Assembly: GCA_003697085.1 (NCBI GenBank)
Contig: RFFU01000040.1
Location: 3,133 to 67,132 of the forward strand
From: Candidatus Hydrogenedentota bacterium
GTDB lineage: Bacteria; UBA8481; J006
Length of the DNA stretch: 64,000 nt
Direction: 5' to 3'
Shown here: positions 23,911 to 62,631 of the stretch, piece by piece
Position numbering within the stretch: the stretch's first letter is position 1
How the letters are laid out: each line of letters starts with the position of its first letter
The notes under the pieces: model-generated
Databases searched by the model: none
The model's input: the letters and a program-made list of their open reading frames with translations, nothing else
Told to the model about the DNA's origin: nothing
Position numbers and translations under genes: made by a program

Positions 23911-24291
23911 TCAGGCCTTCGGGCTGGTTTTGCCCCGTATAATCTTCATCGAACTTTGCTCCCATTCGCGCAAAAGAGACGAAATCTCCCGCTTGTTCTC
24001 GATCGCGCGCTTGAGTTTCTCGACTTCCTCCGGCTTGAGAACGGTATGCCTGAGGCGCCCATCCTCAAGACGGCTCCACTCATGGTATGGACCGTGCCGG
24101 GCCTCGGGATCGGTGTGACAACGGCACGTCTTCTTTCCGCAGACTTTCCTTCTGGTATGCAGTGTTCCGGAACAGACGAGATCCATCGAAAGAATTCGTT
24201 TCTGGATCTCCTTGATCCTTCGCCGGGGATCCTTTTCGGCTCGTTTTGATCTCCCCGAACTTTTTTCTCTTTTTTTGCTTGACAACCTCAT
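23911..24291 (-). CDS. hypothetical small basic Cys-rich protein (putative zinc-ribbon) adjacent to the IS element
   Basis: 126 aa, K/R-rich, with the motif CSGTLHTRRKVCGKKTCRCHTDPEARHGPYHEW. Its 5' end abuts the hairpin at 24277-24333. Confidence 0.35.
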   Translation of the reverse strand: MRLSSKKREKSSGRSKRAEKDPRRRIKEIQKRILSMDLVCSGTLHTRRKVCGKKTCRCHTDPEARHGPYHEWSRLEDGRLRHTVLKPEEVEKLKRAIENKREISSLLREWEQSSMKIIRGKTSPKA

Positions 24292-24333
24292 AATCTGGCG
24301 ATATTATAATCGCCGGATTGAGGTCTTGTCAAG
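24277..24333. repeat. Imperfect inverted repeat / hairpin immediately upstream of the transposase start
   Basis: cttgacaacctcataatctggcgat | attataatcgccggattgaggtcttgtcaag. The arms are near-complementary over about 25 nt. Candidate IS terminal/operator structure. Confidence 0.5.
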
Positions 24334-24340
24334 GGAAAAG

Positions 24341-31542: not shown

Positions 31543-31561
31543 AAACCATCAGAAACGAGAG

Positions 31562-31604
31562 CGGCGGAACACATCGAGAGTGTTCCGCCACTTTTCTTTT
31601 TCCT
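31562..31604 (+). terminator. Rho-independent terminator after the 29614..31542 gene
   Basis: gcggcggaacac-atcgaga-gtgttccgcc stem-loop followed by acttttctttttcc. Confidence 0.6.
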
Positions 31605-31894
31605 CCTCTTCCTTCTCACCCCCGTGGTTCAACCTGTTCGTCTGGCAGGCGTGCATGAGATATCGTTAGCCTTCCGCAGGACCTTTAGGGCCTGCGTTAT
31701 CGGAATCGGCATTCCTGAAATTCGATTGAACCGGTTTAGATTCTCGAAATCCGCGAAATGGTGTTGACACGGCCTCCTCTTCGGGGAATGATTCCTCGGT
31801 CTCCAGTAACGAGGTACTTGCCTTCGGCGGCGAAGAGAGAGAAGATCGAGGGCGTGCCGAGGACGAAACCAAGCGGAGAGGGCCTTTAAGAGTT

Positions 31895-32953
31895 ATGTCG
31901 ACGCGTCAAACCCACAGGGAAGTCGTGCCGTTCCTGCTTCCCTTCACCGTGATCTTTGTCATTTTCCTCTTCTTTCCCGCCCTCTACTCCATCTACCTCT
32001 CTTTCCGAAAGGCGTCGCTCTATTCGGACCTGACGAACATCTTCACAACGATGAAATATGTGGGGTTTCAGAACTACATCGATCTCCTTCACGACCGCGA
32101 TTTCCTCTGGTCGCTCGTAATGACCACGTATTACGGAATTCTGGTTGTTCCGCCGGGCATCTTCGTCTCATTGGTTCTGGCGGCGTTGCTTTCGAATCGA
32201 CTTCCGGGGCACAAGATCTTCCGGAGCGCCTTTTTTCTCCCAAACGTTCTCGACCTTTTCGTGGTTTCCATCGTCTGGACGGCGATCTACGCCCCGAAGT
32301 TAGGGGTTCTTGACCAACTCTTTCACGCCTTGAAACTTCCCGTACTTTTCAAACACGGGATTCTCGCCGATCCCGTCTGGGCTTTGCCGGGGATTGCTCT
32401 GATGGTGATCCTGAAAGATTCCGGTTTCGGCATGATCCTTTATCTTGCGGCGATCCAGAATATTCCGCGGGACGTTTACGAAGCCGCGGACATCGACGGA
32501 GCGACGGCGTGGCAGAAGTTCACGAAGATCACCTTTCCGCTTGTCAAGCCCGTCACGCTTCTGCTCATCGTCACAGGAATTCTGCGAAGTCTGATGGCGT
32601 TTCCCGAGATCTACGCGCTGACGCAAGGCAGGCCCTTTCAGGAGATACCGAACTGGGTGCCGTATTTCGCCGGGGCGACGTTGGGAATGACGAAGATCGC
32701 GGGGTACTATCTCTTTGAAAAGTTTTATCTTTCTTATCAATACGGCTACGCGGCGGCGATGTCGGTCATTCTCCTCTTCATCTCCTTGCCGCTCTCCTTC
32801 CTTTCCTTCTTTGCCTTGCGGACGGAGGGGCCGTCGGTGGGAGAGATGTGGAGGAAGTGGCGGCGGAGCCGACGCGGAATCTCGATGGGAAATGCCGAGG
32901 GGGAAAGTACATCTCCTTTTGGGGAAGGCCTGAAACCGGGAGAGGTCGGATGA
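31895..32953 (+). CDS. ABC sugar transporter permease (MalF/UgpA-like)
   Basis: Six TMs and the EAA loop AADIDGATAWQKFTKITFPLVKPV. Start ATG 31895. Confidence 0.85.
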   Translation: MSTRQTHREVVPFLLPFTVIFVIFLFFPALYSIYLSFRKASLYSDLTNIFTTMKYVGFQNYIDLLHDRDFLWSLVMTTYYGILVVPPGIFVSLVLAALLSNRLPGHKIFRSAFFLPNVLDLFVVSIVWTAIYAPKLGVLDQLFHALKLPVLFKHGILADPVWALPGIALMVILKDSGFGMILYLAAIQNIPRDVYEAADIDGATAWQKFTKITFPLVKPVTLLLIVTGILRSLMAFPEIYALTQGRPFQEIPNWVPYFAGATLGMTKIAGYYLFEKFYLSYQYGYAAAMSVILLFISLPLSFLSFFALRTEGPSVGEMWRKWRRSRRGISMGNAEGESTSPFGEGLKPGEVG

Positions 32954-34077
32954 TGTCGGGCTATCGATTTCTTCGTATGATCCGCGGGTCGCTATTGGCG
33001 GCGATACTTCTCGTGGCAGCCGTCTTCGTCCTCTTTCCCTTTTTCTGGATGCTTTCGACGTCGCTGAAGACCGAAGGAAGGGGAATGAAATTCGAGTTTC
33101 TTCCACGGCGTGTCGCGGAGGTCGGCCCGGTTGAAATTGATACGGCGGGGGTTCGTGTCGGAGAGATTCAGTTCGATCGAACGACGGTGGATGAAACCGG
33201 GGTTCATCCGGCACTGAGGAGCGCGGGGGCGGACGAAGTAATATTCGTCGCCGAGGAAGCGAAGGGGAAGCGGGTATCAGGAAGATTGTTTCCAAAAGAC
33301 ACGGAAGTCTGGGCGGCGAGGGAGGCGCTGCCAGCGGGGAATTGGAAGATCACATATACGGTGAAGCGCGGATGGAAGGCCGCCTTTTTCAATCTCTACA
33401 CCTTCAACAATTACAGGCGCCTTATCAGAAATAAATCTTTTCCTTTCAAGACGTATCTTTTCAACTCCTTTCTCGTTTCCGTTTCCGCCGCGATCCTAAC
33501 TGTCATCCTCTGCGCGTTGGCCGCTTACGTTTTCGCGAAGAAGGAGTTTCCGGGGAAGACGGTTCTCTTCTGGTCTTTCATGGCGGCGATGATGATTCCG
33601 GGAATGATGTATATGGTACCGCAATTCGCCATTGTAACTCAGTTCGGATGGATCAACACGCTGCAAGGCCTGGTTGTTCCGCACCTGGCCAATGTCTTCG
33701 GGCTCTTTCTTCTGAAGCAATTCATGGAGGCGATCCCCGACTCGCTGCTCGAGGCGGCTGAGATGGACGGTGCGACGGAGACGACGAAATTTCTCAAGAT
33801 CATCACGCCGCTTTCGATGCCTTCTCTGGCGATCCTTTTTCTTCTGACCTTCATCACGCAGTGGAACAATTTCTTTTGGCAGCTGATCGTGAACACTCCT
33901 GATTCGCCTTATATCACGCTTCCTTACGGAATCGCCCTCTTCAGGGGCCAGTACGAGACGAAGTACGAACTGATGATGGCGGCTTCTTCCTTCTCGATCG
34001 TTCCGATCGTGATCCTGTTTCTCTTCACACAGCGGTATCTGATCGAGGGGCTGACCGCGGGAGGTGTTAAGGAATGA
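32950..34077 (+). CDS. ABC sugar transporter permease (MalG/UgpE-like) with a large periplasmic loop after TM1
   Basis: EAA loop EAAEMDGATETTKFLKIITPLSMP. ATGATG overlaps the upstream TGA. A roughly 140-aa hydrophilic insert follows TM1. ORF track 32848.. is an upstream extension. Confidence 0.85.
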   Translation: MMSGYRFLRMIRGSLLAAILLVAAVFVLFPFFWMLSTSLKTEGRGMKFEFLPRRVAEVGPVEIDTAGVRVGEIQFDRTTVDETGVHPALRSAGADEVIFVAEEAKGKRVSGRLFPKDTEVWAAREALPAGNWKITYTVKRGWKAAFFNLYTFNNYRRLIRNKSFPFKTYLFNSFLVSVSAAILTVILCALAAYVFAKKEFPGKTVLFWSFMAAMMIPGMMYMVPQFAIVTQFGWINTLQGLVVPHLANVFGLFLLKQFMEAIPDSLLEAAEMDGATETTKFLKIITPLSMPSLAILFLLTFITQWNNFFWQLIVNTPDSPYITLPYGIALFRGQYETKYELMMAASSFSIVPIVILFLFTQRYLIEGLTAGGVKE

Positions 34078-35489
34078 TTAGAGGAACGAATAGAACTCCG
34101 GGGATCGCACGGAAGGGAGGAGCCTGTCTGCTTGGGATTCTTTTCCTTTTCTCGGTTGGTTGCGGCGGCGGCCGGATCGCTCAAGAGAAAGGAACGATCA
34201 CACTCTGGGAGACCTACAACAACGAGGAACACGATGTTTTTATGGAGATCGTGAAGTCATTCGAGGAATGGTACGCGAAGGAGCGCGGAGAAGAGGTTCA
34301 TGTGCGCGTCAAACGGATCCCCTTTGACCAGCACATTCAAAAGATCAAATTCTCCGCCATTACGCGAACGGCTCCGGACATCGTGCGTGTCGATGCGGGA
34401 GAACTGATCGATCTCGTTTACGGCCAGATCGTTTATGACTTGAAGGAGATCGATCCGAAGATCGAGGAATATCTTTCGACGTTTATGCCGGTGGCGCGGG
34501 AATCGGTTCGGATTCCCTTACGCCATCCGGACGGAAAGGTTCGAACGGGCGTCTATGGGATCCCGGATCAATTGACCGGGGTTGCGATTTACTACAATCG
34601 AACGATGTTCAAGGAAGCGGGGATTCCGTTTCCGCCGCGGACCTTACGGGAGTTGCGGGACGCGGATCCGCCATGGGATTTCAAGCGGTTCCGGGAGGTC
34701 GCGAAGGCCCTGACGAAGCCCGAGCGGAACCAGTACGGCGTGGCGCTCAATTCCTCGCTGTGGTTCAGTCTGCCCTTTTTCAACGCCTTCGGAGCGGATT
34801 TCATCAAGATCGATCCGGACGGCAAGTTCCGCTGCGTTCTCGATTCGGACTCGGGAATAAATGCTCTCACGGCGCTCGCTTCGCTCTACTGGGATGGTTC
34901 CGAGCCGGGGGCGTGGTTGGCCGGGGCCATCAACCCCGATCGCGGTTTCATCAACAACAAGTACGCGATGATCGTTTCCGGTCCGTGGAACCTCAAGACC
35001 TTTCGCAAATCGGGAGTCGATTTCGGCGTGACGTTCATTCCGGAGGGGCCGAATCGTCGGGAGATTCCCGTGCCCGGAGGGGGAACGATCCGCGTGGGAA
35101 CCTCGACCAATGTCGGCGGCACGGACATGGCGATTCTGAAGACGACGCGCCAGCCCCGATTGTGTTATGAATTCCTGAAGTACCTCACGAGGCCGGAAGT
35201 GCACGCAAAGTGGTGCAATGCCCTAGGGCAGATTCCCGTCCAGACCTTGGCTGAACCGTTGGTGGATTTTTCCGGGAACCCGGACCTGAAGGTTTTCGTG
35301 GAGCAGATGCGGACGGCGGTCCCGCGCCCGAAGATACCGCGGTACGGGGTATTGGAGGTTTCGATCATGGTGCCGCAGATCGAGCGGGCGTTCCGCGCGA
35401 GGAATCGCGCCGGTGTTCGTCTCGCTTTGGGGAAAGCGGTCGAGGAGATCGACCGGCGGATTCTCCGGGACGTTAATGTACCGCGATGA
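34074..35489 (+). CDS. ABC transporter extracellular solute-binding lipoprotein (sugar-binding family 1)
   Basis: Lipobox LFLFSVGCGG and an SBP_bac_1-like sequence of 471 aa. The ATG overlaps the permease TGA (ATGA). Confidence 0.8.
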   Translation: MIRGTNRTPGIARKGGACLLGILFLFSVGCGGGRIAQEKGTITLWETYNNEEHDVFMEIVKSFEEWYAKERGEEVHVRVKRIPFDQHIQKIKFSAITRTAPDIVRVDAGELIDLVYGQIVYDLKEIDPKIEEYLSTFMPVARESVRIPLRHPDGKVRTGVYGIPDQLTGVAIYYNRTMFKEAGIPFPPRTLRELRDADPPWDFKRFREVAKALTKPERNQYGVALNSSLWFSLPFFNAFGADFIKIDPDGKFRCVLDSDSGINALTALASLYWDGSEPGAWLAGAINPDRGFINNKYAMIVSGPWNLKTFRKSGVDFGVTFIPEGPNRREIPVPGGGTIRVGTSTNVGGTDMAILKTTRQPRLCYEFLKYLTRPEVHAKWCNALGQIPVQTLAEPLVDFSGNPDLKVFVEQMRTAVPRPKIPRYGVLEVSIMVPQIERAFRARNRAGVRLALGKAVEEIDRRILRDVNVPR

Positions 35490-37239
35490 GCGGTCGGCTG
35501 GGAAGGAAGACCGGCTTCCGTGCCGACGGCGGCGTGCCGGACTGGCTCCCGGGAGCGGGCGTCTCCCGCGAAATCTGATTCCGTTTCTTTTCGTGATGCT
35601 TTTCCTGTTGGAACCGTTCGCTTTTGCGGGAGCGGTTCGAGCCGGCTCGATTCGATTGGAAGGGAACGTGGACCTTTCAGCGGAGATACGGCGGGACGCC
35701 GACCGCGAGTTGGACGACCGCCAGATCGGATTCGAGCGGCCGTTTTACGACAACCGCAAACGCCCTGCGTACAATCTGGAGTTCTTCGATCCACGGGTCG
35801 AGATCCGCGCGTACGCGACGCCGGCGGCGCCGGTTGAGATCTTCGCGAAATTTTTCAATTCCAATGATCTTTTTCTCGGCGAGGCACACACGCGTCTGAG
35901 GTACACCAAAGGGCGCGACAAGAAGGAGCGGGGGATCGAGTCGTATTTTTTCTACCGGCAAGGGCGACTGAACCTGGGCGATCCCGTCGTGACGATTGCC
36001 TTCGACCAGTTCGGAAACGGTATTGCGACGGCGTGGTGGTTGGGGCAGGGGGATTTCGCTCCCAAGAAGGGGCGTTGGTCCGGCGAATTGAATCTCCAGA
36101 ACAACACGGGCGAATTGAATTCCTTCGGAGAGGACAACGAATTCATCACCGCGAAACTCCGGCATGACTACGAGGTGAACGAGGATTGGAATCTGGCCGG
36201 CGAACTGCTGTACGCCAGAAAGAACTTCACGGACAGGAATGTGGAGCGGCAGTTCAACGAGGTGTACGGTTCGGCCTTCACCGTTTCGTGGAAGAATACG
36301 AACCTGGCGCTTCAATACAATTTCTCGCAGGCGCAGGAGCTGGGATTTTCGGCTCCGGACAACGGTGTTTTCGGAATCGATCTCAGAAATCTGATCCTGC
36401 TGGATCGGAAGAAGACGGGCCGTTGGGGGCTGAACGCGACCTATGTCGATTTCGGCCGAAACTACCGGAACTTCATCGGACGAAACGCAAGCACCATCTC
36501 CTACGCGCATCGGATCGCCAACGGAGTGGAATCGACGGCGGGGGATGTCAATGATCACGAGTTCTTCGGGGAACTCTACTGGGACGTACCGAAATACGAT
36601 ATCAATCTGACTTTGAGGCAGACGGACCGATACGGAAGGGAGACGGGACGTCGGCTGGAGCGGCAGCAGGAAGTGGATTTGAATCTGAAACTGGTGAGAC
36701 ACTTTTCGCTTCGTTCGCTCTATGTAAGGAGACTCTTCGGGCTCGAGGAGATATTGGAGGATCTCGATGCGAACCGAATCATCCGAACGCGAAGTATGCG
36801 GAGTGACGATTATTATTTGGCTCTGACGATGGTTCGAAAATGGGGACAGGTGAAACTTGACTACCGTCGCGTGCGGCATCGCGCCCGCGTGCGAACCCAT
36901 TACGTCGGCGCCGAGGCCACCTACAAGGCGAACAAGAAGCTGACCTTTCTGGCCCGCGGCGCCATGGCCTTCGTGAGATTGCCGCAAACGACGTGGGCCA
37001 TCACCACCACCCCGTATGACTTCGGAACGCAGAGGCGGATTAGTTTCGTGGAGCCGTTTTCCCGTCGGAAGACGCTCTTCGCGCAGATCCAATACCGCCC
37101 AAACGACAATTCGCAGATCTTCCTCGAATACGGCAACGGTTTTCATCTCGACAACGACCTTTCGTTGGACGGGGATTTTCAGATTCCCGACCGGCATACG
37201 GATCATCGAATTTTTATGAAGGCGGAGATGTGGTTCTGA
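35476..37239 (+). CDS. putative outer-membrane beta-barrel protein (porin-like) co-transcribed with the sugar ABC transporter
   Basis: Signal-like RNLIPFLFVMLFLLEPFAFAGAVRA. Alternating amphipathic beta-strand pattern, aromatic girdle residues, and the C-terminal ...KAEMWF (terminal Phe typical of OMPs). Start uncertain among 35413, 35476 and 35596. Confidence 0.55.
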   Translation: MYRDERSAGKEDRLPCRRRRAGLAPGSGRLPRNLIPFLFVMLFLLEPFAFAGAVRAGSIRLEGNVDLSAEIRRDADRELDDRQIGFERPFYDNRKRPAYNLEFFDPRVEIRAYATPAAPVEIFAKFFNSNDLFLGEAHTRLRYTKGRDKKERGIESYFFYRQGRLNLGDPVVTIAFDQFGNGIATAWWLGQGDFAPKKGRWSGELNLQNNTGELNSFGEDNEFITAKLRHDYEVNEDWNLAGELLYARKNFTDRNVERQFNEVYGSAFTVSWKNTNLALQYNFSQAQELGFSAPDNGVFGIDLRNLILLDRKKTGRWGLNATYVDFGRNYRNFIGRNASTISYAHRIANGVESTAGDVNDHEFFGELYWDVPKYDINLTLRQTDRYGRETGRRLERQQEVDLNLKLVRHFSLRSLYVRRLFGLEEILEDLDANRIIRTRSMRSDDYYLALTMVRKWGQVKLDYRRVRHRARVRTHYVGAEATYKANKKLTFLARGAMAFVRLPQTTWAITTTPYDFGTQRRISFVEPFSRRKTLFAQIQYRPNDNSQIFLEYGNGFHLDNDLSLDGDFQIPDRHTDHRIFMKAEMWF

Positions 37240-37276
37240 TGGAAGAAAAGACGCGGGAAGGAAGAGGAAGAGGGTT

Positions 37277-39484
37277 ATGAGACGCGGCGAGGAATCTCGA
37301 GAGAAACCGGCCGGGAGGGAGAGACGGCGGCCGGGGCGGAATGTGATTCAAAGCCTCGGCGTCTTTCTCCTTCTTTCGGGCGTTCTGCTTCTGATCGGTT
37401 CGGGGAGGGTGCGAAGCGAGGAGGAAAAGAGCGAACGTGTATTGCCGCCGGCGATGGCGATGCCTTACGGAAAAATCCGCTTTCTCTGGGACGACGAGTT
37501 CGCGAAGAAGGTGGAGATCGGCGCGGATTTCAACAACTGGAATCCCTCGGCAACGCCGTTGCACCAAGGGCCCTACAACATCTGGATGACGGAGGTGGAC
37601 CTCAAGCCGGGGAAGTATTCCTACAAGTTCGTGATCGACGGGCAGTGGGAGTCGGGGGACAATCGGACCTTGATCGTGGTGAGGAAGAAGGACGGGACGA
37701 TCGGGATCAAGGAGACGCGTCCCGCCTCGAACACGCCCTACAATTCGCGGATCTGGTTTGAGGGGAGAGCCTGGGCGCAGGCGGTTCTGCGGAGGGTTCC
37801 GGACGGCGAGCAGGTCGATACGGGGCGCTGGCGGTTCGCTCCGTTCGAGTACAACCTTCTTCCCCGGATGTATTTCACGGCGGGGGACAACTTTACGGGA
37901 ATGGTGGAGATGAATATGAATCAGAGGCGGGATCGGTTCACGACCTTCTTCAACCAGGGCGAGGTGGCGTTGGAGGAGGATTTCGGACGGTTCTTTCTCT
38001 TTCGCCGGCGGCGGGCTTTCACATTCGACAATCCGATGCGCACCTTGGATCGGTTCCGTGACACGTTGGACGACGAGGTTTATTTCACGACGGAGCAGCG
38101 GCCGAAATGGCACAACTTCGGCCGCCGGTTCGATTTCATCACGCGGAATCAATCGGACAGCGATTTCACCTTTACCGCGGACGGCTGGCAGGGGTTCGTG
38201 TCGGACGTGCATCCGGGAAAATGGAGTCTGTTGGCGTTCGGAGCCGACCAGATGCGCAAGAACGAGGATCTTTGGGGAAGCCGAGTGAAGTGGGAGGGGA
38301 AGTACTTCACGGTGGGTGGGCATTATCTGATGAACAACCATCAGCGGGGTTTGATTGCGGCGCCGGCCGGAGGGAATTCCGTGCGGCAGAATGCGGCTTT
38401 CACGGATACCGACGGCGGCGTCTTCTTCTATCCCTACATCAATTCGGCGACGGATGACGGCCGTAATTATCTCAACTACGATGCCCTTGTCCTCTTCGAT
38501 CCGAATGCTCCGAACCGGGATCAATGGATGGGATTGGACTTCAAACTCGGCACGGAGAAGCATCATTTGTTCGGCGAGTGGGAATTTTATCGGAAGGACT
38601 GGTCGTACGTGGCGTTCGAGAACGGGGACGGGATGCTTCCGAACGGAGCGGGATTCTTCAACACGAGTGTCCACAATATCGGCGAGTTTCTCTTTGGAGG
38701 CCAGGAGAGAAAACACACGATTCTTTTCGGCGGTGTCTGGAAGCCGTGGGAGGCGTTGGGATTGGAGTTGGCGCTGAAGGCGGACGACGCCTCGGCGCTG
38801 ACGCTCGATCAGAACCGCAATCTCGTTCGCACGGATCCCAGTGGAGTGGAGTTCGCGTTTCGGGGAAAGTACCAGGCCGAGAAGTTCCGCTATGGGGCGG
38901 AATTCATCAGGCGAACGGTGCGCGATTTTCCGAACAACACCTTTCAGGCCAACTTCGACAACTTCGATTTCGTGGGCGTGGATGTGCTGGGCGCAAACGA
39001 TCTCTTCCAGTTCAAACAGTTGCTTGTGGCAACTCCGGGACGGTTCACGATCCACCTCGGGCATCGGTTCCGCAGTTACGATCTCACCGCCGCCACGCTC
39101 CAGACGAACGAACTCAAGCTCCGACTGGGCTATCAATTCACGAAACGGCTGGGGCTCGAGGCGGCGGGGCGGTACAAAAGTTACGATCTTCCCAACGATC
39201 CCTCCCTGACTGTTCAACCCGGTGTCCGTGAAAACTTTTTTGCCGGCGGGCTCCGCCTGATCTACCGCGTCTCGAAATATGTTACTCTGAATGCGGGGTA
39301 CGGGGTGAATTTCGAGAATGACGAGGATGTGGAATGGGGACAACTCTTCTTTATGCGCGAGGCCCTGGCGCGAGCGCAACGGCCGCAGTCGCCGACGACC
39401 CACGCATTGGATCAGGTGTTGGAGGCGGAGCGGGCCTTGCAGCGCGAACGGCGTTTCGAGTTCAACATCGATGCGCGGTTTTGA
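37277..39484 (+). CDS. outer-membrane beta-barrel protein with an N-terminal CBM48 / AMPK-beta glycogen-binding-type domain
   Basis: Signal/TM (VIQSLGVFLLLSGVLLLIGSG), then KIRFLWDDEFAKKVEIGADFNNWNPSATPLHQGPYNIWMTEVDLKPGKYSYKFVIDGQWESGDN (CBM48/GBD signature F.W....V.V.G.FN.W.....L.......W.....L..G.Y.YKF.VDG.W). About 600 aa of barrel-like sequence follows, ending ...FEFNIDARF. Confidence 0.6.
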   Translation: MRRGEESREKPAGRERRRPGRNVIQSLGVFLLLSGVLLLIGSGRVRSEEEKSERVLPPAMAMPYGKIRFLWDDEFAKKVEIGADFNNWNPSATPLHQGPYNIWMTEVDLKPGKYSYKFVIDGQWESGDNRTLIVVRKKDGTIGIKETRPASNTPYNSRIWFEGRAWAQAVLRRVPDGEQVDTGRWRFAPFEYNLLPRMYFTAGDNFTGMVEMNMNQRRDRFTTFFNQGEVALEEDFGRFFLFRRRRAFTFDNPMRTLDRFRDTLDDEVYFTTEQRPKWHNFGRRFDFITRNQSDSDFTFTADGWQGFVSDVHPGKWSLLAFGADQMRKNEDLWGSRVKWEGKYFTVGGHYLMNNHQRGLIAAPAGGNSVRQNAAFTDTDGGVFFYPYINSATDDGRNYLNYDALVLFDPNAPNRDQWMGLDFKLGTEKHHLFGEWEFYRKDWSYVAFENGDGMLPNGAGFFNTSVHNIGEFLFGGQERKHTILFGGVWKPWEALGLELALKADDASALTLDQNRNLVRTDPSGVEFAFRGKYQAEKFRYGAEFIRRTVRDFPNNTFQANFDNFDFVGVDVLGANDLFQFKQLLVATPGRFTIHLGHRFRSYDLTAATLQTNELKLRLGYQFTKRLGLEAAGRYKSYDLPNDPSLTVQPGVRENFFAGGLRLIYRVSKYVTLNAGYGVNFENDEDVEWGQLFFMREALARAQRPQSPTTHALDQVLEAERALQRERRFEFNIDARF

Positions 39485-39595
39485 GGCGGACGGGTGTCCC
39501 GCTTTGTTTTCCTTCCCGTTTTCTTTTCTTTCTCCGCGTGCGCTGACATTTTCAGGGAGGCGACGAGAAAATTTGAAGTTGGGAGGTTGGAGCGG

Positions 39596-40066
39596 ATGAC
39601 GAGGACGACTCATAAAAAGGGACGGTTTTCGGCGGAGCGTTTTGTGACGCTGGGGATGTTTACGTTGTTTCTCCTCTTGGCGTCCGGTTGCCTGGTGCGC
39701 GAAAGGCTGGAATCGGCCACCGTCGCGCAGAATCCCAAGGGCGTGCTTTTCGTTTACGACGATCTTTCGGCGAACGAGGTCTGGCTCGCCGGCCAGTTCA
39801 ACCACTGGGCGGCGAAGAAGGGAGATCGGTTTCTCATCGAGATGAAGCAAGGAGAGGACGGATTATGGCGCGCTGTCATTCCGTATCGCGAATACATCCG
39901 CGATCCCGAGTTCGATGAACTGGATGACGATATCTATGTCCAGCATGGACGGCGCTATCAGTACAAGTTCGTGATTGATCAGAACCGTTGGGTCACGGAC
40001 CCGAACAACCGGAGCCTGAAGAAGAACCCGGACGGGACCGAGAATTCCCTGCTGGTGGCGCCTTGA
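39596..40066 (+). CDS. lipoprotein with CBM48 / glycogen-binding domain
   Basis: RBS gggaggttggagcggATG. Lipobox LLLASGC, then GVLFVYDDLSANEVWLAGQFNHWAAKKGDRFLIEMKQGEDGLWRAVIPY...RRYQYKFVIDQNRWVTDPNN. ORF track 39494.. has an upstream extension. Confidence 0.65.
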   Translation: MTRTTHKKGRFSAERFVTLGMFTLFLLLASGCLVRERLESATVAQNPKGVLFVYDDLSANEVWLAGQFNHWAAKKGDRFLIEMKQGEDGLWRAVIPYREYIRDPEFDELDDDIYVQHGRRYQYKFVIDQNRWVTDPNNRSLKKNPDGTENSLLVAP

Positions 40067-42508
40067 ATGGATTGTGAGACTGGTTTTGTTTCCGGGCACC
40101 GAAGGCGGCGAGAGAAGGTGCGCGTCGTCTTGTTTGCCGGGCTGTGTCTTCTTCTTTTGTGCGCGGCGGCGATGCTTGTGGAAGATCGGGTGGCGGGCGA
40201 GGTTGTTCCGGCGGCGGTAGTCCGGGCGGCGGCGGTAGGCCCGTCGGCCGATGGAGAGGTCATCGTCGTTCCGCGCGACGAAGCCGCCTTGTCGGTGCTC
40301 GAGACGCTCGGGTATTCGATCAAGAGGCGCCTCTCGCCGCTCAACGCCGTTCTGTTGGCGGTTCCGGTGGGAAAGACGACAGAAGAAGCCGTCGCGGAAC
40401 TGGCTGTTCGGGCGGACCTCGTGGACGTAAGGCGGAACCGTCTCTATTCGCGGGCGGTAACTCCGAATGATCCGCAGTTCTCGAATCAATGGCAGTTCGA
40501 TTCGATCGTGGCGGAGCCGGCGTGGGACATCGATACGGGAACGGCTTCGGAGACGATCGCGATCATCGATGACGGAATCGACACGGATCACGTCGATCTG
40601 GCGGCGAGGCTCGTCTTTGTGAAGGGCGCCGATGTCGTCAACAACGATGACGATCCTTCCCAATTCGTCAACATTCACGGAACGGAGGTGGCCGGGATGG
40701 CGGCCGCGATCACGAACAACGGTCAAGATGCCGCCGGGGTGGATTGGAACGCAAAAATCATGCCGATCCAGGTTTTTGCCGATGTCGCGGGATCGAGCGC
40801 AACGAGTGCGGATATTGCCGCAGGAATCATCAAGGCGGTCGAGAATCACGCGAGTGTGATCAATCTTTCCTTGATGGGATTTCTCGATTTTGCTCCGGAC
40901 GATACGATCGAAGATGCGATCGCCTATGCCGTGAACGCCGGTATTCCGGTGGTGGCCGCCGCCGGGAATTTCAACAGTGGCGGGACGACGTGGCCGGAGA
41001 CGGTACCCATCCATCGATTTCCAGGGAGTTCGTTTCTCACGATTTCGGTTGGGGCCACGAACCGTGCGGATTCCTGGGCCAATTTTTCCGCCTACGTTCG
41101 TCCGGACGAAGCATCCTATCAGACGTGGATCAATCCCGGCGGGACCCTTCTCGGAGATTTGGGGATTCAGGAAGGGCAGTTGACGACGCTCGATCTTGTC
41201 GCTCCGGGCGAAAGTGTCGTGACGTTAACGGCGGGTGTTGGCGTGGCGACCGTGAATGGGACCTCGTTTTCGGCTCCTTTGGTTTTCGGAGCCGTGACAC
41301 TGGTGAAGCATATCCGGAGCGAGTATTCGCCGGAGAACCTACGCGAGATTCTCCGGGTCACCGCGCGCGACATCGGGCCGGGAGGGTACGATGCGCCAAC
41401 CGGCGCCGGTGTCCTCGATCTCAACAAACTTCTCGGGACGGCTCTTTATGAATCGCTCTATCCCTTTTCGGACGACACGCGGACGATCCGAGCGGATTCC
41501 TTTTCCGCGGCTGTTCCGGGAGACACCGGCAATGCTCTTTCGGCGGCAAATGGGCGAGTCGGGCGGCGTTCTCTCGAGATCACGGGAAACAACGTTTACA
41601 CGGGATACGACGGCGCTCTGGGAGCGGAGAGCGGGACGATCGAATTCTACGTTTGGTTCGACGCAACTCAACCGAACGATACGGCTTACGTGGTTACTCA
41701 AAAGGGGAATCTGGCGAAAGGGGGGGGGAGCTTGGATCTCATCTATCGTTCGGACGGACATCTGGAGTATCGGTTGGCGGATACGGTGACGCTTGTCAGC
41801 GCCGATACGCTTTTCGCCCAGCGTTGGTACCACGTCGCGATGACGTATGGCGACAGCGGAGCCTTTCTTTATGTGAACGGAGAATCGCAGGCGTCGTCGG
41901 GGGTCACCGGCGGCCCGCCGGTTCAAGACACGGTCTTTTTCGGCGCACCGGGTTCCGTGGGCTCCTCGGCGGTATGCCGAATCGATTCGCTCAGATTTTC
42001 GCGAGGGCAGCGCCTGATCTTTCCGAGCGCTCTGGCGGTGACGGTCTGGAGCCAGAAGGCCACGACCAACGCGCTCGATGCCGTCAGTGTTCGGTGGACG
42101 GCGTTGCGGAACGAGACATCGCCCGTGACAATCTCGATCTATGCCGACGAGAACCGCGAGGGATTCGATGGGATCCCCCTGGCGACGGGGTTGGCGAACG
42201 ATGGTCAGGAGACGGTAAGCCTTGCGGCTCTCGCCTCGACGGGAAAGGAGTATTTTCTCTACGTGACGGCGGAGGATCTTGTTTACGGTAACGAGAGCGT
42301 CTCGGCCTATTCGGACACAGCCTTCAAGGCTTTTACGGCTTTATCGGATTTGTTGACCGCGACTCCGGGGCGGTCGGGAGAGTGCCGGTTGGCCACCGTT
42401 ACCGGCGCGCGGGGAGTGAAGTGGTTGAGATGGTTTCGGGATCGGGCGATGAGCCTTCCCTTCGGCCGTTGGCTCGTCGGTTTTTACTATCGTGTATGGG
42501 GCTGTTGA
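40067..42508 (+). CDS. secreted S8 subtilisin-like serine peptidase with C-terminal LamG/concanavalin-like domain
   Basis: Catalytic triad contexts: AIIDDGIDTDHVDL (Asp), HGTEVAGMAAA (His), VNGTSFSAPLVFGA (Ser). C-terminal laminin-G-like region (IEFYVWFDATQP...LDLIYRSDGHLEYRLAD...WYHVAMTYGDSGAFLYVNGE). Signal peptide present. Confidence 0.85.
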   Translation: MDCETGFVSGHRRRREKVRVVLFAGLCLLLLCAAAMLVEDRVAGEVVPAAVVRAAAVGPSADGEVIVVPRDEAALSVLETLGYSIKRRLSPLNAVLLAVPVGKTTEEAVAELAVRADLVDVRRNRLYSRAVTPNDPQFSNQWQFDSIVAEPAWDIDTGTASETIAIIDDGIDTDHVDLAARLVFVKGADVVNNDDDPSQFVNIHGTEVAGMAAAITNNGQDAAGVDWNAKIMPIQVFADVAGSSATSADIAAGIIKAVENHASVINLSLMGFLDFAPDDTIEDAIAYAVNAGIPVVAAAGNFNSGGTTWPETVPIHRFPGSSFLTISVGATNRADSWANFSAYVRPDEASYQTWINPGGTLLGDLGIQEGQLTTLDLVAPGESVVTLTAGVGVATVNGTSFSAPLVFGAVTLVKHIRSEYSPENLREILRVTARDIGPGGYDAPTGAGVLDLNKLLGTALYESLYPFSDDTRTIRADSFSAAVPGDTGNALSAANGRVGRRSLEITGNNVYTGYDGALGAESGTIEFYVWFDATQPNDTAYVVTQKGNLAKGGGSLDLIYRSDGHLEYRLADTVTLVSADTLFAQRWYHVAMTYGDSGAFLYVNGESQASSGVTGGPPVQDTVFFGAPGSVGSSAVCRIDSLRFSRGQRLIFPSALAVTVWSQKATTNALDAVSVRWTALRNETSPVTISIYADENREGFDGIPLATGLANDGQETVSLAALASTGKEYFLYVTAEDLVYGNESVSAYSDTAFKAFTALSDLLTATPGRSGECRLATVTGARGVKWLRWFRDRAMSLPFGRWLVGFYYRVWGC

Positions 42509-42520
42509 CGGGCGCGGCCG

Positions 42521-43909
42521 GTGAGTAAGAGAGTGCATCGGGACGGGCACGGTTCGTCCGTGTGGCGTGCCGGAAGAGAGATTGTTTACCAGATCTTTCC
42601 GGATCGCTGGAGGCGTTCGAAGAGTTCGCCGGAAGTTCTGCCACGAGGGAGGAGGTGGCGGGGGAGACCGGTGATCGTGACGAGCAACGCCCGGCTTCTC
42701 GGTTCCCGGCGCAACGGCCAGCGCACCTTTTACGGCGGAGACCTGCAGGGAATCACGGATTCGCTGGATTATCTTTCGAGTCTCGGAGTCACGATCCTGT
42801 ATCTGAACCCGATCTTCGAGGGGAGAAGTTGTCACCGATACGACACGGTCGATCATTTGCGGATCGACCCGATGCTGGGAACGCGCGAGGATTTCGAGGT
42901 GCTGTGTCGAGAGGCGAAGAGCCGGGGGATGAAGATCGTTCTGGACGGCGTCTTCAATCACACGTCGCTGGATCACCCCTGGTACCGATCATCGAGCCTG
43001 CGCCGGCGATATTATCTGATGAAGAACGAGACCGAAACTATGACGTGGATGAACGGCGGAGGGTTACCGAAACTGGATACGGAAAATCCGCGGGTGTTGA
43101 GCGCTATCCGGAAAACGATCGAGGCGTGGCCGGAGGCGGACGGCTGGAGGCTGGACGCGGCGCATCTTCTTCCGGAGAGGTGTTTGCGGGAGATCCGCGG
43201 GGCAGCCGGGACGCGGAAGATCGTGATCGAGGATTGGGAACATTCGGCTCATTATTTCCGGAAGGGATTGGCAGATTCCGTCACGAACTTTCTTTTTCGG
43301 GACGCGATGGAGAGGTATTTCATCGAGGATCTGGCTCCAGAGACGTTGGTGGAGCGGCTTCGGGTCTGGATCGAGGGGTATCCTCGAGCGCAACTACCTT
43401 GGGTGTGGAATTTTCTCGACAATCATGACACGGCGCGTCTGTTGGGGAGGGTGGGGCGTGAGCGGTTTTTTCGAGCGGCGGTTTTCCTCTTCACTTTACC
43501 GGGAACGCCGATGGTTTTTCACGGGGACGAGGTCGGATTGGGCGGCGGTGGAGCGCGGAAGAACCACGACGCGGGGCGGCAGGTGATGCCGTGGAACGAG
43601 CGGTGGTGGGATCGGGGTATCTTGGAGCATTTTCGAGCATTGGCGTCTTTCCGGAAGCGGTTTGGACCGGCGACGCGGGGGCGGTTCCGGGTTCTGGCGG
43701 CGGAGAATGGCAGCCGGACGGTAGTGTGGGAGATGGAGTGGGGTGGATATCGAATCTATTCGGCCGTGAATGATGGGTATCGGGGATCGCGGGTTCCAGG
43801 TATGGACGGAAGACGGGTGAGACTGAAACCGGGCGAGTGGATAGTAAGGGGCGAGGATCGAGAGGGGGAGATGCGGTTGGGATCGGAGCAAATTTCCTAC
43901 TCAACGTAA
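42521..43909 (+). CDS. GH13 alpha-amylase-family glycosidase (cytoplasmic type, no signal peptide)
   Basis: VYQIFPDRW, GGDLQGITDSLDYLSSLGVTILYLNPIF, GMKIVLDGVFNHTS (region I), GWRLDAAHLL (region II), WNFLDNHDTARL (region IV). GTG start. Confidence 0.85.
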   Translation: MSKRVHRDGHGSSVWRAGREIVYQIFPDRWRRSKSSPEVLPRGRRWRGRPVIVTSNARLLGSRRNGQRTFYGGDLQGITDSLDYLSSLGVTILYLNPIFEGRSCHRYDTVDHLRIDPMLGTREDFEVLCREAKSRGMKIVLDGVFNHTSLDHPWYRSSSLRRRYYLMKNETETMTWMNGGGLPKLDTENPRVLSAIRKTIEAWPEADGWRLDAAHLLPERCLREIRGAAGTRKIVIEDWEHSAHYFRKGLADSVTNFLFRDAMERYFIEDLAPETLVERLRVWIEGYPRAQLPWVWNFLDNHDTARLLGRVGRERFFRAAVFLFTLPGTPMVFHGDEVGLGGGGARKNHDAGRQVMPWNERWWDRGILEHFRALASFRKRFGPATRGRFRVLAAENGSRTVVWEMEWGGYRIYSAVNDGYRGSRVPGMDGRRVRLKPGEWIVRGEDREGEMRLGSEQISYST

Positions 43910-44063
43910 GTTTTTCCACGGTTTCCGCGACTTGCGGGTGGGCGTGGAAGTGATAGAATTAAGGCGTAACGATACGAAAGAGAAGAATCGGAAAGAAAAA
44001 AGGAACGCAGGAGGAAAAGGAAGCGGTGGTACTGGCGCGACCGTTGAAGAGGGACCGGATGCT

Positions 44064-47000
44064 GTGCGTCCTTTCGATCAGGCTGTGAAGAGACCGTCAC
44101 ACGGAAAGCGGCGGAGGGAGATCGAGCGGGGGCGGTCTTTCGTTTCGATAGGGCTTTTACTTTTCGGAGGGGGCTTGCTTTTTCAGATTTTCGCGCCCGT
44201 TTATGCGACGAATCCGGTGACGGTGCCGGGAGATTTCAACGGCTGGAACAATTCCTCGGGAAACAAGATGACGTACATCAACACTTGGAACGGAAGGGAT
44301 GTCTTTGCGGTACTGACGACGATCGACTCGGTCGCGTATGGAACCGGTCACCAATACAAGATTTACGTCGGCGATTGGGCGACGCCTTCCGGGGGGTGGT
44401 TGGGTGGCGGAACGTCCTCCGGGTTGAAACTTCCGCAGGTTGTCAATCAACTGGATTCTCAACCCGTAACACCCACCATTACCATCGATATCGACACTTC
44501 GGTTTATCACGATACACCGGGAATGTTTTATATTCAGTTTCGTGTTAAGCCTTCAGGTGGGGGGCTGGGAACGATCAACGATGTGGTTTTCAAGAGGGCG
44601 ACCGTCCAAGCCCCGGGAACGTATAACGGGTGGGATACGGACGGCGCAGCCACGGAGATGGCGAAGATTGGGTTGACGGACACGTGGGTGAAATACGTCT
44701 CGATAAGCGCGGTCGGCACCGTGCAATTCAAGATCATTACCGGAAACTCGTGGGACTGGTACCACTGGGGCTGGTCGAACGCGAACACGCTTTCGGTTCC
44801 GGTGGACACGACGGCATTCGAGGGACCAAGTTTCGGGGCGGGGCAGCCGCAGAATATCCAGGTGAACGTCACGGAAACCGGTGTCTATCGCCTGACATTC
44901 AACACGGTGACGGATCAGATCACGTTTACGAAGGTCACGGAACCGTTGATCAGCCAAGTGCAGACGTCGGGAGCGTCGGCGACGGACGATTTCATCGAGT
45001 TGTACAATCCCACGCCGGATTCGATCGAGATGAGCAACTATTTTCTGGCGCAGAGAGCCTCTTCGGAGGAGACGGTCACAGTCATCCATCGATTCACATC
45101 GGACAGCATTCCTCCTCACGGATATTACCTTTGGGCGCACGCGACGGGTTATACGGGCGAGACACCAGCCAACCAGACTTCCTTGGTCAACGTTACGAAT
45201 GACAATTTGATTTTGCTGAAGAAGAACGGCGACACGACGAGTGAGTATTTGGCGGAGGTGGTGGATGCCGTCGGATACGGTGCCTGGGCGGCACCGACAT
45301 CACTGGCTGCGCAGGAATCGGGCTATTGGCGCTCGGCGTTTTACGAAGGCAGCGGATTGGCGTCCAATCCCGCGGCGAATGGGAGTTTGATGCGGTTGCC
45401 GGGGGGGATCGGCGGGGAGCATTCGGACAGTCAAGACAACGCCAACGATTTCATAACGCTTTCCGCGTCGATGCCGAGAAACAAGACAGGTTACAGGACT
45501 CCTTACACTTTTTCGGACACGGTTTCCCCTTCCTCAGTCGTTTCGGGAGAGACCTTTCTCTTAACGATGGTGGTGAAGGACTGGTTGGGGGAGACGGTGG
45601 GTCTCTATTCGGATACCGCGGATCTGAGTGTTTCGGCGGGAACGATCAATCCGAAGAAGACACAAGCCTTTTCAGCGGGAACACGGAGCGAATCGGCCAG
45701 CATCACCGGTGCGCCGGCGACCGTGACGATCACGACGACGGCTCCGGACGGCTCCTTTCAAGGAACGGTGGATATCACGGTGACGCCGGATCTTGTCAAC
45801 GGATGGCATATACCAAAGAACAACGAGCCGGATACGGCGGTGGATGCGGACAGTTTTATGAGGACGGCAACGAATACGGAAGGGGGGACGAACAACGATA
45901 CGATGTGGCCGCGACGACGGACCACGGACAATCCGATTCTTTTGTGGGTGGGGAAGGCTCCTGTGGATCCGGACTCTCCGCAGAGCGCGGCTTTTCGATA
46001 TCAGACGGCTACGACGGCGTGGTCGGCGTGGCAGAATTTCGACGACACGGTGATCGTGGGGGGGAATCTCTACTATCGTTTTACGTTGAACCAGGGCGCA
46101 ACGACGGACTGGGATTTCCGGGATACGGTGGCGTACTATTTCCGCCTGGAGCAGGTCGGCAAGGACACGACCTACATTTACGGGAGCGGCGTGGCGGACG
46201 ATGTCACGACGAGCCAAAAGACACCGGTCGAGGCGACCGCGCAGGCGAGCCCGTTTATCTACAAGATTCGTTCGACCCGTCCCTTGCCGCCGGATACCGC
46301 GATCTCACCGACCGACGGCCAGACGGATGTCGGGACGAGGAAACCGACGTTCACCTGGAAGGAGTCGTTCGACATCGACACGGCGGCGGGGGACACGATC
46401 GTCGATTACTATTTCGAGATTGCGACGAAGCCGGATATGAGTGACAGCGCCTCGCTGGGGTTGTCGAAGTGGTTGGGTTCGGGGAACACCTCGTACACGA
46501 TCGATTCACCGCTTCAAGCCTTCACGTGGTACTACTGGAGGGTTCGCGCCAAGGATTCCGGGAGTCAGGTCAGCGACTATTCCGAGACCTTCCAGTTCAA
46601 GATCAACGCGATCATCGCCGTGGACGGGGACATATCGGACTGGATTCTGGGAGAGACGTTCCCGACGATCAACGCGGGGAATATGAGTCATTCGACCTCG
46701 ATGGGGATCACGTGGGATTCCAACAGTATCTATGTGATGTGGGACAAGAAGGAGTCGCTTCACGATTCGGACGTGCTTTTCATTTACATCGATGCGGTTC
46801 CGGGGGGGAGCAACACGTCGATCAATTGGAGCGGAACGCACAATCTCCCGTTCGCGGCCGACACGGCGTTTCATATGGAACCGAAAGGACTGAAGTTCGA
46901 GTATCGGTACTGGAACGGGGGGGCGTGGGTCTGGAAGGGGGCGATCGGACAAAAGGCCCAGAATTACGCCGGCGGGATCGCGGAAGTCAGTTTCCCGTGG

Positions 47001-62519: not shown

Positions 62520-62631
62520 CCTTCAGCTCCCCCGACCAGGTGTGGGTTTCCGCTCGGGGAAGGCTTGGCACGATCCGGCAAAAAGCGCGCGTTTTTCGCC
62601 ATGCACCGGAGAAGGGGAAGCGTCGGGAACA

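Follow-up and report, generated by a model that had tools for sequence, protein, structure and literature searches.

A CBM48 module fused to a predicted 22-strand outer-membrane beta-barrel, within a conserved cassette of alpha-glucan utilisation loci

Known CBM48 modules sit on kinases, phosphatases and GH13 enzymes, and none is known to sit on a membrane barrel. A gene in the window (the whole stretch of 64,000 nucleotides from a Candidatus Hydrogenedentota bacterium that was analysed here) encodes such a combination, and this raises the question of what a glycogen-binding module does on a barrel of the outer membrane. No description of an architecture joining a CBM48 or glycogen-binding domain to an outer-membrane barrel was found in the literature, including that on Hydrogenedentes. 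All features of the locus are summarized in Table 1.

Table 1. Features of the fusion gene and its operon (positions within the window).
Feature	Position	Strand	Details
Sugar ABC importer	31895..35489	+	Permeases 31895-32953 and 32848-34077; solute-binding protein 34074-35489
Upstream partner, CBM-less paralogous outer-membrane barrel	35476..37239	+	Ends ...KAEMWF
CBM48-barrel fusion gene	37277..39484	+	735 aa + stop, ATG start; ORF list, translation
Predicted Sec signal peptide	37277..37420	+	Residues ~1-48, SLGVFLLLSGVLLLIGSG; Arg-rich N-region and hydrophobic stretch, by inspection
CBM48 / AMPK-beta glycogen-binding-type beta-sandwich	37451..37714	+	Residues 59-146; Pfam, PDB matches, model
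12-residue linker	37715..37750	+	Residues 147-158, TRPASNTPYNSR; conserved N-T-P-x-x-S-(R/K) junction motif
22-strand outer-membrane beta-barrel (predicted), undescribed family	37751..39481	+	Residues 159-735
Two conserved alpha-helices in L11, the last long loop, before the final strand	39341..39445	+	Residues 689-700 and 710-723; DSSP of model
C-terminal beta-signal	39452..39481	+	RFEFNIDARF; terminal Phe, alternating hydrophobic positions
Small CBM48-like lipoprotein, downstream	39596..40066	+	Lipobox LLASGC, then LVRERLES; weak Pfam matches
S8 subtilase with Laminin_G_3 domain, in operon	40067..42508	+	Peptidase_S8 131 bits, Laminin_G_3 46 bits
GH13 alpha-amylase-family enzyme, predicted cytoplasmic	42521..43909	+	Pfam Alpha-amylase 165.8 bits
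Giant secreted amylase, 3471 aa	43932..54347	+	LTD, Ig_Rha78A_N, GH13, CBM20, FN3; Pfam

The fusion protein and its predicted fold

The encoded protein is a 100% match to the NCBI MAG protein D6679_04600 of Candidatus Hydrogenedentota, which carries the name 'hypothetical protein'. Its ATG is preceded by a purine-rich, SD-like stretch, and the strings IRFLWDDEFAKKVEIGADFNNWNP and GKYSYKFVIDGQW as well as the C-terminal IDARF, which the initial annotation had quoted, were all recovered in the translation. A long antisense ORF (37214..39850, minus strand) was dismissed as an artefact of the high GC3 (75%); the homologues belong to the plus-strand ORF. The signal peptide, which appears as a low-confidence helix in the AlphaFold2 model, is probably cleaved near VRS/EEE; those of the homologues, equally judged by inspection, are short and classical (AXA-type), with AFS, AHA or AAA at the end.

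The N-terminal domain is a genuine member of the CBM48/AMPK-beta-GBD type, as the initial annotation had proposed. Residues 68-131 matched Pfam AMPK1_CBM (PF16561) with 38.4 bits (cut-off 26.8) and residues 76-129 matched CBM_48 (PF02922) with 27.3 bits (cut-off 22.4), while the solved glycogen-binding domains of AMPK beta (1z0m, 1z0n, 2f15) were hit with an E-value of about 1e-7, and the motifs FNNW, YKF and DGQW were identical to these chains in the alignment. The model folds the module into seven strands with a pLDDT of 91-97. In comparison with the AMPK beta domain, the CBM48 of the Hydrogenedentota subgroup has a shortened loop after DGQW. With regard to sugar binding, W88, K117, W124 and N129 are kept in 57-62 of the about 63 family members that have a CBM. 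In the alignment, the sugar-contacting Trp/Lys/Trp residues of AMPK beta1 (W100, K126 and W133 in the numbering of the published GBD-cyclodextrin structure) are thus conserved in the fused module; N129 may be the equivalent of AMPK N150.

Between the module and the barrel lies a short linker (pLDDT 77-84), in which N152, T153, P154, S157 and R158 are invariant in six full-length relatives and frequent across 70 members. For the remainder of the protein, the AlphaFold2 model, which was built with 70 family sequences, reached a pLDDT of 87.2 and a pTM of 0.85 and placed 22 long strands between residues 159 and 734. Across the same 70 members, the connections between strands alternate strictly between short turns (T1-T10, median lengths of 2-6 aa) and long loops (L1-L11, medians of 3-51 aa with high variance). 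The last of these loops, L11, is conserved in length (median 51 aa), and E718 and L721 in its helices are nearly invariant. At the C-terminus, a terminal Phe was found in 86 of the 93 proteins checked, and the residues at -2, -6 and -8 were hydrophobic in 100% and at -4 in 82%. Model, beta-signal and alternating turn and loop lengths agree, so that the outer-membrane character assigned earlier to this part holds, and the protein is predicted to be a plug-less beta-barrel substrate of the BAM type.

Sequence searches with the barrel part gave no significant match in Pfam, NCBIfam or PDB chains; a weak NCBIfam match (E 0.0027), to the C-terminal portion of a GSU2204-family protein, scored 16.5 bits where the cut-off is 350. 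The fold of the model, a closed antiparallel barrel, agrees with that of solved outer-membrane proteins, and MtrB and LptD are among its best Foldseek matches. The 22-strand barrel is shared with TonB-dependent transporters (FyuA, 4epa; FhuA, 1qff; SusC/RagA-type), and the protein could be viewed as a divergent, SusC-like member with the CBM48 in place of the N-terminal extension. However, the model has no plug domain and only 12 residues between CBM48 and strand 1, neither Pfam Plug (PF07715) nor TonB_dep_Rec matched even at E-values up to 1, NCBIfam likewise gave no such match, the identity to TonB-dependent transporters is 7-11%, and the signal peptide leads into strand 0 of the CBM and not into a TonB box. 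We consider such an origin extremely improbable. Three further families were rejected: the maltoporins (LamB, PF02264), with no LamB HMM match and no 18-strand barrel; the fimbrial ushers (PF00577), with no usher HMM match and no 24-strand plugged barrel flanked by periplasmic N- and C-terminal domains; and the type V autotransporters, with no Autotransporter match, 22 strands and a linker that is a 12-residue coil instead of an alpha-helix. The suggestion of the initial annotation that the barrel may act as an usher accordingly finds no support at the family level.

Among 1.84 billion clusters, the barrel family has 87 representatives, which are unnamed or carry generic names such as 'hypothetical' or 'glycogen-binding domain-containing protein'. 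A search for related loci with closer sequences led only to Hydrogenedentes-type MAGs. Whether homologues keep the fusion had been posed as a question beforehand, and they do: the N-terminal CBM48 is retained in 59 of 70 near-full-length members. Some members carry three to four tandem starch modules (CBM48/X25/CBM53), in two members CBM20 takes the place of CBM48, and the N-terminal arrays of homologues comprise as many as four starch-binding modules in tandem, together with the Ig-like domain Big_13. Since starch modules were gained repeatedly and independently on the same barrel, glucan binding appears integral to its job. The barrel domain merits its own family definition.

A three-gene cassette in alpha-glucan utilisation loci

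The fusion gene occupies the central place in a conserved cassette, with a paralogous barrel without a CBM before it and a small CBM48 lipoprotein after it. This three-gene arrangement had not been noticed in the initial annotation. The upstream partner has no Pfam or NCBIfam match and shares 48% identity with the gene in the same position of the related locus L001 and 22% with that of L003. As a single sequence, it gave no match to the barrel alignment in hhalign; this is attributed to sensitivity, because the profile-profile comparison with the barrel family was positive (probability 97.6%, E 3e-12). A CBM-less barrel lies directly upstream of the CBM48-barrel in all ten loci with enough sequence, and a cassette contains two or three paralogous barrels.

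The downstream lipoprotein scored 22.0 bits for CBM_48, just below the cut-off of 22.4, and 20.8 bits for AMPK1_CBM, and its homologues directly follow the barrel gene in 11 of 11 loci tested. A signal peptide ending in Cys was visible in nine of the ten lipoproteins inspected, the one of locus L009 showing only a lipobox-like pattern match. After the lipidated Cys, six of these ten, including that of this window, carry the motif (I/V)(V/I)xERL(E/K).

Upstream, a promoter-like site (31764-31792) follows a strong terminator (31563-31589) and precedes the ABC importer, whose genes matched BPD_transp_1 (twice), SBP_bac_1 and SBP_bac_8 in Pfam and stand in the same order in the related loci L001 and L002. 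With ABC permeases, a binding protein, two GH13 enzymes and CBM20, and with the 3471-aa amylase as its last gene, the operon bears out the alpha-glucan setting claimed previously. However, the giant enzyme is not adjacent to the fusion gene, as had been stated, since three genes separate the two in this window. The N-terminus of the giant amylase is a hydrophobic signal or anchor, while that of the smaller GH13 enzyme leads directly to the catalytic domain; because the latter has no signal peptide, oligosaccharides must enter the cytoplasm. A T2SS GspK gene (60509-61561) in the window indicates that the host is diderm.

Across the 14 loci examined, which stem from divergent uncultured lineages, the cassette forms part of gene clusters for the utilisation of alpha-glucan. 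The cassettes sit among amylases, with sugar ABC-importer genes in most loci; GH13, GH57, Glucodextran_C and MalK lie near several of them, though a glycoside hydrolase was not seen in every locus within the stretch of sequence covered. Enzymes of the same architecture as the giant amylase (Ig_Rha78A_N/FN3/GH13) were found in L001, L002 and L011, giant amylases of this kind recur beside the cassette in distant lineages, and several cassettes accompany enzymes only about 1000 aa long. Other lineages have a protein with CHU_C, a T9SS type-B C-terminal domain, ahead of the cassette and, in one locus, also a gene with a weak PorP_SprF match; elsewhere genes of the same size hold that position.

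This neighbourhood also bears on the direction of transport. Like AlgE, PgaA or BcsC, the barrel might export a self-made alpha-glucan (capsule or EPS), with the N-terminal periplasmic domain guiding the polymer. No glycosyltransferase, synthase or Wza/Wzc-type gene was found in any of the 14 loci, though, and the assignable neighbours are hydrolases and importers. Given this catabolic context, the role of a polysaccharide exporter was rejected as very improbable.

Position of the module and possible roles of the cassette

With 22 strands and the short turns all on one side, the N-terminus of the fusion protein would lie on the periplasmic side, like the C-terminal beta-signal. By this strand parity, the CBM48 is most likely located in the lumen or at its periplasmic mouth; exposure at the surface, which would require the linker to thread through the lumen, is less likely. 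The description of the protein as a surface barrel that itself binds glucan thus needs qualification, as strand parity makes a periplasmic or lumenal module the default.

Considering fold and neighbourhood together, we propose with moderate confidence that the cassette is a TonB-independent uptake module for alpha-glucan in the outer membrane. The giant secreted amylase would cleave alpha-glucan outside the cell. Without energy from TonB, maltooligosaccharides or glucan chains would then use the 22-strand barrel or barrels to pass the outer membrane, the binding protein in the periplasm and the ABC permeases would import the sugars, and in the cytoplasm the signal-less GH13 enzyme would complete hydrolysis. 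At the channel, the fused CBM48 may retain alpha-glucan. From the periplasmic mouth or the lumen, it could capture the emerging chain, block its back-sliding and pass it on to the binding protein; if threaded to the surface, it could instead dock the cell or the channel onto starch.

Several points speak against an uptake channel. Unless something occludes it, a barrel of 22 strands without a plug would form a pore of dangerous width; candidates for the occlusion are the long conserved loops L3 (with its F-D-x-P motif), L5 and L11 (with its two helices), the CBM and the lipoprotein. Up to four starch modules in a row, as in some homologues, are more typical of surface adhesion than of a periplasmic role, and such tandem arrays are known from extracellular starch-binding proteins (SusE/F, amylosome proteins). 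The protein might therefore be a surface starch adhesin, with the barrel mainly as an anchor, the CBM48 threaded out in the manner of an autotransporter and the sugars entering by another route; CBM48 and the CBM48 lipoprotein would then keep the cell attached to glycogen or starch granules in the vicinity of the giant amylase. The additional Big_13 domain and the CBM20 of some homologues fit this picture, as do the conserved linker and the lumen of a 22-strand barrel, which geometrically accommodates a folded domain of ~10 kDa. However, a barrel of 580 residues with conserved long loops and a paralogous partner far exceeds the needs of an anchor, type Va autotransporter barrels having 12 strands. 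Moreover, the 12-residue linker is barely long enough to cross the barrel, the fusion protein lacks a Pfam Autotransporter match, and the operon holds no other outer-membrane channel gene to carry the sugars. All in all, an adhesin appears rather unlikely.

The co-occurrence of giant amylases in distant lineages would suit anchoring or assembly by the barrels equally well as uptake. The paralogous barrels would then serve as a platform for assembly or anchoring that exports, holds at the surface, or both, either the CBM48 lipoprotein, by a threading like that of Slam, LptDE or RcsF, or the giant amylase. Broadly taken, this corresponds to the earlier usher idea. The lipoprotein is invariably the next gene, the motif behind its lipidated Cys (six of ten) would suit insertion into a barrel, and the best Foldseek matches, MtrB and LptD, are partner-enclosing barrels; besides the recurring giant amylases, the CHU_C protein and the weak PorP_SprF match preceding the cassette in other lineages recall a known cargo-anchor pair. 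In contrast, the likeness to ushers, Slam (DUF560), LptD and TpsB is limited to the generic barrel fold, the nearby T2SS gene could serve amylase export, and several cassettes are accompanied only by the shorter enzymes. A platform would also leave the barrel's own conserved starch-binding residues unexplained, and we regard it as improbable, more so than the adhesin.

A further point against the uptake module is that a simple porin would not need two or three paralogous barrels per cassette. We tentatively suggest, at a clearly lower confidence than for uptake as such, that these barrels form a hetero-oligomeric alpha-glucan translocon, in which the CBM48 at the periplasmic exit or in the lumen and the adjacent lipoprotein would ratchet long glucan chains inwards across the outer membrane without an energy source. 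Such a translocon might represent a TonB-independent alternative to SusCD import in several uncultured phyla.

Comparison with known systems and significance

The overall layout resembles the Bacteroides Sus system (SusC/D, SusE/F, SusG), with a large barrel, small lipoproteins carrying starch modules, a large amylase and downstream genes for import and hydrolysis. However, all protein families differ, SusC and SusD are absent, an ABC importer serves the inner membrane, the CBM is fused, and a surface location of CBM and lipoprotein is only putative here. While SusC-type transporters gain glycan binding through the lid formed by SusD, a SusD-like lipoprotein partner, the glycan-binding module is covalently fused in the present case and the partner is a paralogous barrel. 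LamB, ScrY and CymA are barrels of 18 or 14 strands with an internal aromatic 'greasy slide' and no separate CBM; they show no sequence or Pfam relationship to the fusion protein, which differs by its 22 strands, its CBM48 and its paralogous-barrel and lipoprotein partners. In LptD-LptE and MtrB-MtrA, which are also large plug-less barrels, a lipoprotein or partner occupies the lumen. That an outer-membrane barrel can have a carbohydrate-binding function has a precedent in the lectin barrel Wzi. These proteins are likewise unrelated in sequence, and none of them has a CBM or belongs to a catabolic glycan locus.

For the passage of starch-derived chains through the diderm outer membrane, two paradigms exist, namely small specific porins (LamB, CymA) and the TonB-powered SusCD machines. 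The cassette matches neither, as it combines a large, plug-less and unannotated barrel, which is duplicated in the locus and carries its own starch module, with a CBM48 lipoprotein, and it recurs, in lineages known solely through metagenomes, beside amylases of which some are giant. Should it prove to be a transporter, it would add a third architecture to those used for glycan uptake, would mark loci of alpha-glucan utilisation beyond Bacteroidota, and would raise the question of whether a tethered CBM can provide directionality in place of TonB energy.

CBM48 module and barrel domain

The ORF encoding the CBM48-barrel, an N-terminal CBM48 fused to an outer-membrane beta-barrel, was confirmed; a purine-rich SD-like stretch lies 5' of its ATG, and the 735-aa product is identical to a Candidatus Hydrogenedentota MAG protein annotated only as 'hypothetical protein'. 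A longer antisense ORF was rejected as a gene because it is a by-product of the high third-position GC (75%). As the initial annotation had proposed, the N-terminus carries a CBM48/GBD-type domain: residues 68-131 exceed the curated Pfam thresholds of both AMPK1_CBM (38.4 vs. 26.8 bits) and CBM_48 (27.3 vs. 22.4 bits), two related starch modules, X25 and CBM20, give weaker Pfam matches, and the segment aligns with the experimentally determined structures of the AMPK beta1 and beta2 glycogen-binding domains (E values of about 1e-7). The motifs FNNW, YKF, and DGQW are identical in this alignment, and we take the sugar-stacking Trp100 and Trp133 as well as Lys126 of the AMPK beta1 domain (cyclodextrin structure) to fall within them.

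For the C-terminal 580 residues, no significant match was obtained in Pfam, NCBIfam, or PDB sequences. An AlphaFold2 model built on 70 family members (pLDDT 87.2, pTM 0.85) predicts a seven-strand CBM48 sandwich (residues 59-146), a linker of 12 residues, and a barrel of 22 long strands (residues 159-734) whose last loop holds two helices (residues 689-723). Foldseek bears out the barrel, its top matches being MtrB, Fiu, PirA, and LptD. The barrel fold is supported by two model-independent features. Firstly, 86 of the 93 proteins checked end in Phe, and positions -2, -6, and -8 are always hydrophobic (100%; 82% at -4) with polar residues in between, which is, judged by sequence, the classical BAM beta-signal. 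Secondly, the connections between strands alternate across the 70 members: the ten with even numbers have median lengths of 2-6 residues and almost no variance, and the eleven with odd numbers are long (medians up to 51) and vary. The barrel character assumed initially is thus borne out, and the domain belongs to an undescribed family. With a barrel-only profile, only 87 proteins were found among 1.84 billion cluster representatives (E <= 1e-3); the family is unannotated, and those looked up are named 'hypothetical' or 'glycogen-binding domain-containing protein [bacterium]'. Residues 597-681 weakly match the C-terminal part of a GSU2204-family CXXCH (seleno)protein (NCBIfam, E 0.0027), which, with MtrB as top Foldseek match, may hint at remote kinship with porin-cytochrome complex barrels.

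Pfam and NCBIfam HMMs for TonB-dependent transporters, ushers, autotransporters, and maltoporins did not match the CBM48-barrel, which resembles these proteins in barrel size and fold only. The latter three identities were rejected on this basis, and the usher role suggested earlier finds no support at the family level. A divergent TonB-dependent transporter is hardly credible: besides the missing HMM match, there is no plug, with only the short linker between CBM and strand 1, and no TonB box either. The residues conserved behind the signal peptide form strand 0 of the CBM.

Homologues keep the fusion, with an N-terminal AMPK1_CBM in 59 and CBM_48 in 55 of the 70 near-full-length members. Two members carry CBM20 in place of CBM48, and P0010 and P0011 (family proteins of ~1000 aa) place three to four tandem CBM48/X25/CBM53 modules before the same barrel. 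W88, K117, W124, and N129 are conserved in 57-62 of approximately 63 CBM-bearing members. This repeated accretion of different starch modules and the purifying selection on binding residues indicate that binding alpha-glucan is an integral part of what the protein does.

Operon and conserved cassette

The gene lies in a tightly packed plus-strand series behind a strong terminator (31563-31589) and a promoter-like site (see table). Directly upstream lies the partner, which hhalign identifies as a distant paralogue of the barrel (probability 97.6%, E 3e-12) and which lacks a CBM; a small CBM48-like lipoprotein follows downstream.

Features of the window and of related loci (L, P: locus and protein handles)
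Feature	Positions	Strand	Remark
DUF4277 and DUF4915 (sub-threshold) ORFs	24212-25063, 22557-23780	+	upstream of fumarate hydratase gene
Fumarate hydratase gene	27578-28969		
642-aa secreted protein	29614-31542	+	no family match
Strong bidirectional terminator hairpin	31560-31592		after 642-aa protein gene, before operon
Promoter-like site	31764-31792		ahead of plus-strand series
Gene series	31895-54347	+	
Two ABC permeases	31895-34077	+	
Solute-binding protein	34074-35489	+	
Partner	~35476-37239	+	ends ...AEMWF, no family name
Antisense ORF	37214-39850		rejected
CBM48-barrel	37277-39484	+	
Hairpin and T-run	39485-39525	+	right after barrel stop codon
Small CBM48-like lipoprotein	39596-40066	+	LLASGC
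S8 subtilase	40067-42508	+	
GH13	42521-43909	+	signal-less
3471-aa amylase	43932-54347	+	LTD, Ig_Rha78A_N, GH13, CBM20, FN3
ATP-cone/kinase protein	56012-57373	-	
ORFs beside GspK gene	59005-60306, 62516-63283		no Pfam match
T2SS GspK homologue	60509-61561	-	T2SSK_1st, T2SSK
Third barrel paralogue P0057	L008 7319-8944		
Third barrel paralogue P0090	L011 8001-9653		
Third barrel paralogue P0061	L012 5226-7097		
CHU_C/FlgD_ig protein and ~280-aa gene	L003 2067-8500, L008 1841-3803, L010 4504-6440, L013 1370-6454		upstream of cassette

The imperfect, GC-rich hairpin and T-run after the barrel gene (GGCGGACGGGTGTCCCGC TTTGTTTTCC) were not flagged by the terminator scan and may be an attenuator ahead of the lipoprotein gene. 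The secreted amylase has an N-terminal hydrophobic anchor, a Lamin-tail domain, a split GH13, and two FN3 domains; L001, L002, and L011 likewise carry, next to the cassette (partner, CBM48-barrel, and lipoprotein), enzymes longer than 3200 aa that have this domain set. The subtilase, with a fervidolysin-like prodomain, Laminin_G_3, and a Kre9/KNH-like Ig domain, may process the giant amylase; it is absent at the equivalent position in L001 and L002. The 642-aa protein ends in a hydrophobic helix and basic tail (...GLFLFFGVFLAMAARRRRKEG) that looks like a sorting or anchor signal. Approximately 6 kb past the operon, the GspK gene fits a diderm host, and the amylase may leave the cell through a T2SS. 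A further protein joins an ATP-cone to a phosphoribulokinase/uridine-kinase domain.

When the ten loci fetched first were searched by HMM and phmmer, the partner was found immediately upstream of the CBM48-barrel wherever sequence exists (10/10 loci including the window) and the small CBM48 protein immediately downstream (11/11); three further loci show the identical order, judged from gene calls only. The Cys ending the signal peptide is visible in nine of ten small proteins inspected; in L009, only a match to a lipobox-like pattern points to it. Directly after this Cys, six of the ten, including the window's, share the motif (I/V)(V/I)xERL(E/K) (e.g., C-LVRERLES, C-KSIVRERLEG), which could be a tether docking the lipoprotein into one of the barrels. 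We consider it unlikely that the barrels are a platform on which the lipoprotein or the giant amylase is assembled or anchored.

In three distant lineages, a third, CBM-less paralogue directly follows the CBM48-barrel, giving three paralogous barrels; in P0061 and related proteins, an acidic low-complexity N-terminus replaces the CBM. Non-Hydrogenedentota lineages carry a CHU_C or FlgD_ig C-terminal-domain protein and a ~280-aa gene upstream. If the latter's weak PorP_SprF match, seen in one locus (L010), holds, this would be a T9SS type-B cargo-anchor pair linking the barrels to type IX cargo anchoring. Starch- or alpha-glucan-related genes occur in 14/14 loci, with CBM48/CBM20 proteins throughout and GH13, GH57, or glucodextranase-like enzymes in most; distant-lineage neighbours also include MalK and sugar ABC components.

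Topology and proposed role

In the model and the 70 members, all short turns are found at the same end of the barrel as the C-terminal beta-signal, and with an even strand number, strand 1 therefore starts at the periplasmic rim. The partner's mature N-terminus, which aligns directly with strand 1, supports this. Such a start would by default place the fused CBM48 in the periplasm or inside the lumen, where the N-terminal domains of LptD, BamA, PgaA, and SusC reside. For the CBM48 to reach the surface, the short conserved linker TRPASNTPYNSR would have to thread the lumen. Of the glucan-binding surface barrel put forward initially, the CBM48 and the barrel stand, but the surface site is not established, and a barrel-anchored surface starch adhesin appears doubtful.

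On balance, we slightly favor a role of the cassette in the outer-membrane step by which starch or glycogen is used. The secreted amylase would release chains outside the cell, one or more plug-less 22-strand barrels would pass them across the outer membrane without TonB, the binding protein and ABC system would import them, and the cytoplasmic GH13 would finish hydrolysis. The fused CBM48 would hold glucan at the channel. Its likeliest site is the periplasmic mouth or the lumen, where it would capture the chain or work as a ratchet; a docking role on the cell surface is less probable. The data show the domain identities, the barrel fold, the conserved fusion with its binding residues, and the synteny, and from there we infer transport itself, its directionality, the element that occludes the pore, and complex formation. 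A glucan exporter seems very improbable.

Outer-membrane glycan channels and loci combining a barrel with CBM-bearing lipoproteins are already known (LamB, CymA, SusCDEFG); no description of a CBM covalently fused to a barrel that has a paralogous partner was found in the literature searched. A tentative proposal, of considerable interest should it prove correct, is a translocon of different barrels that works independently of TonB and uses the CBM as a ratchet.
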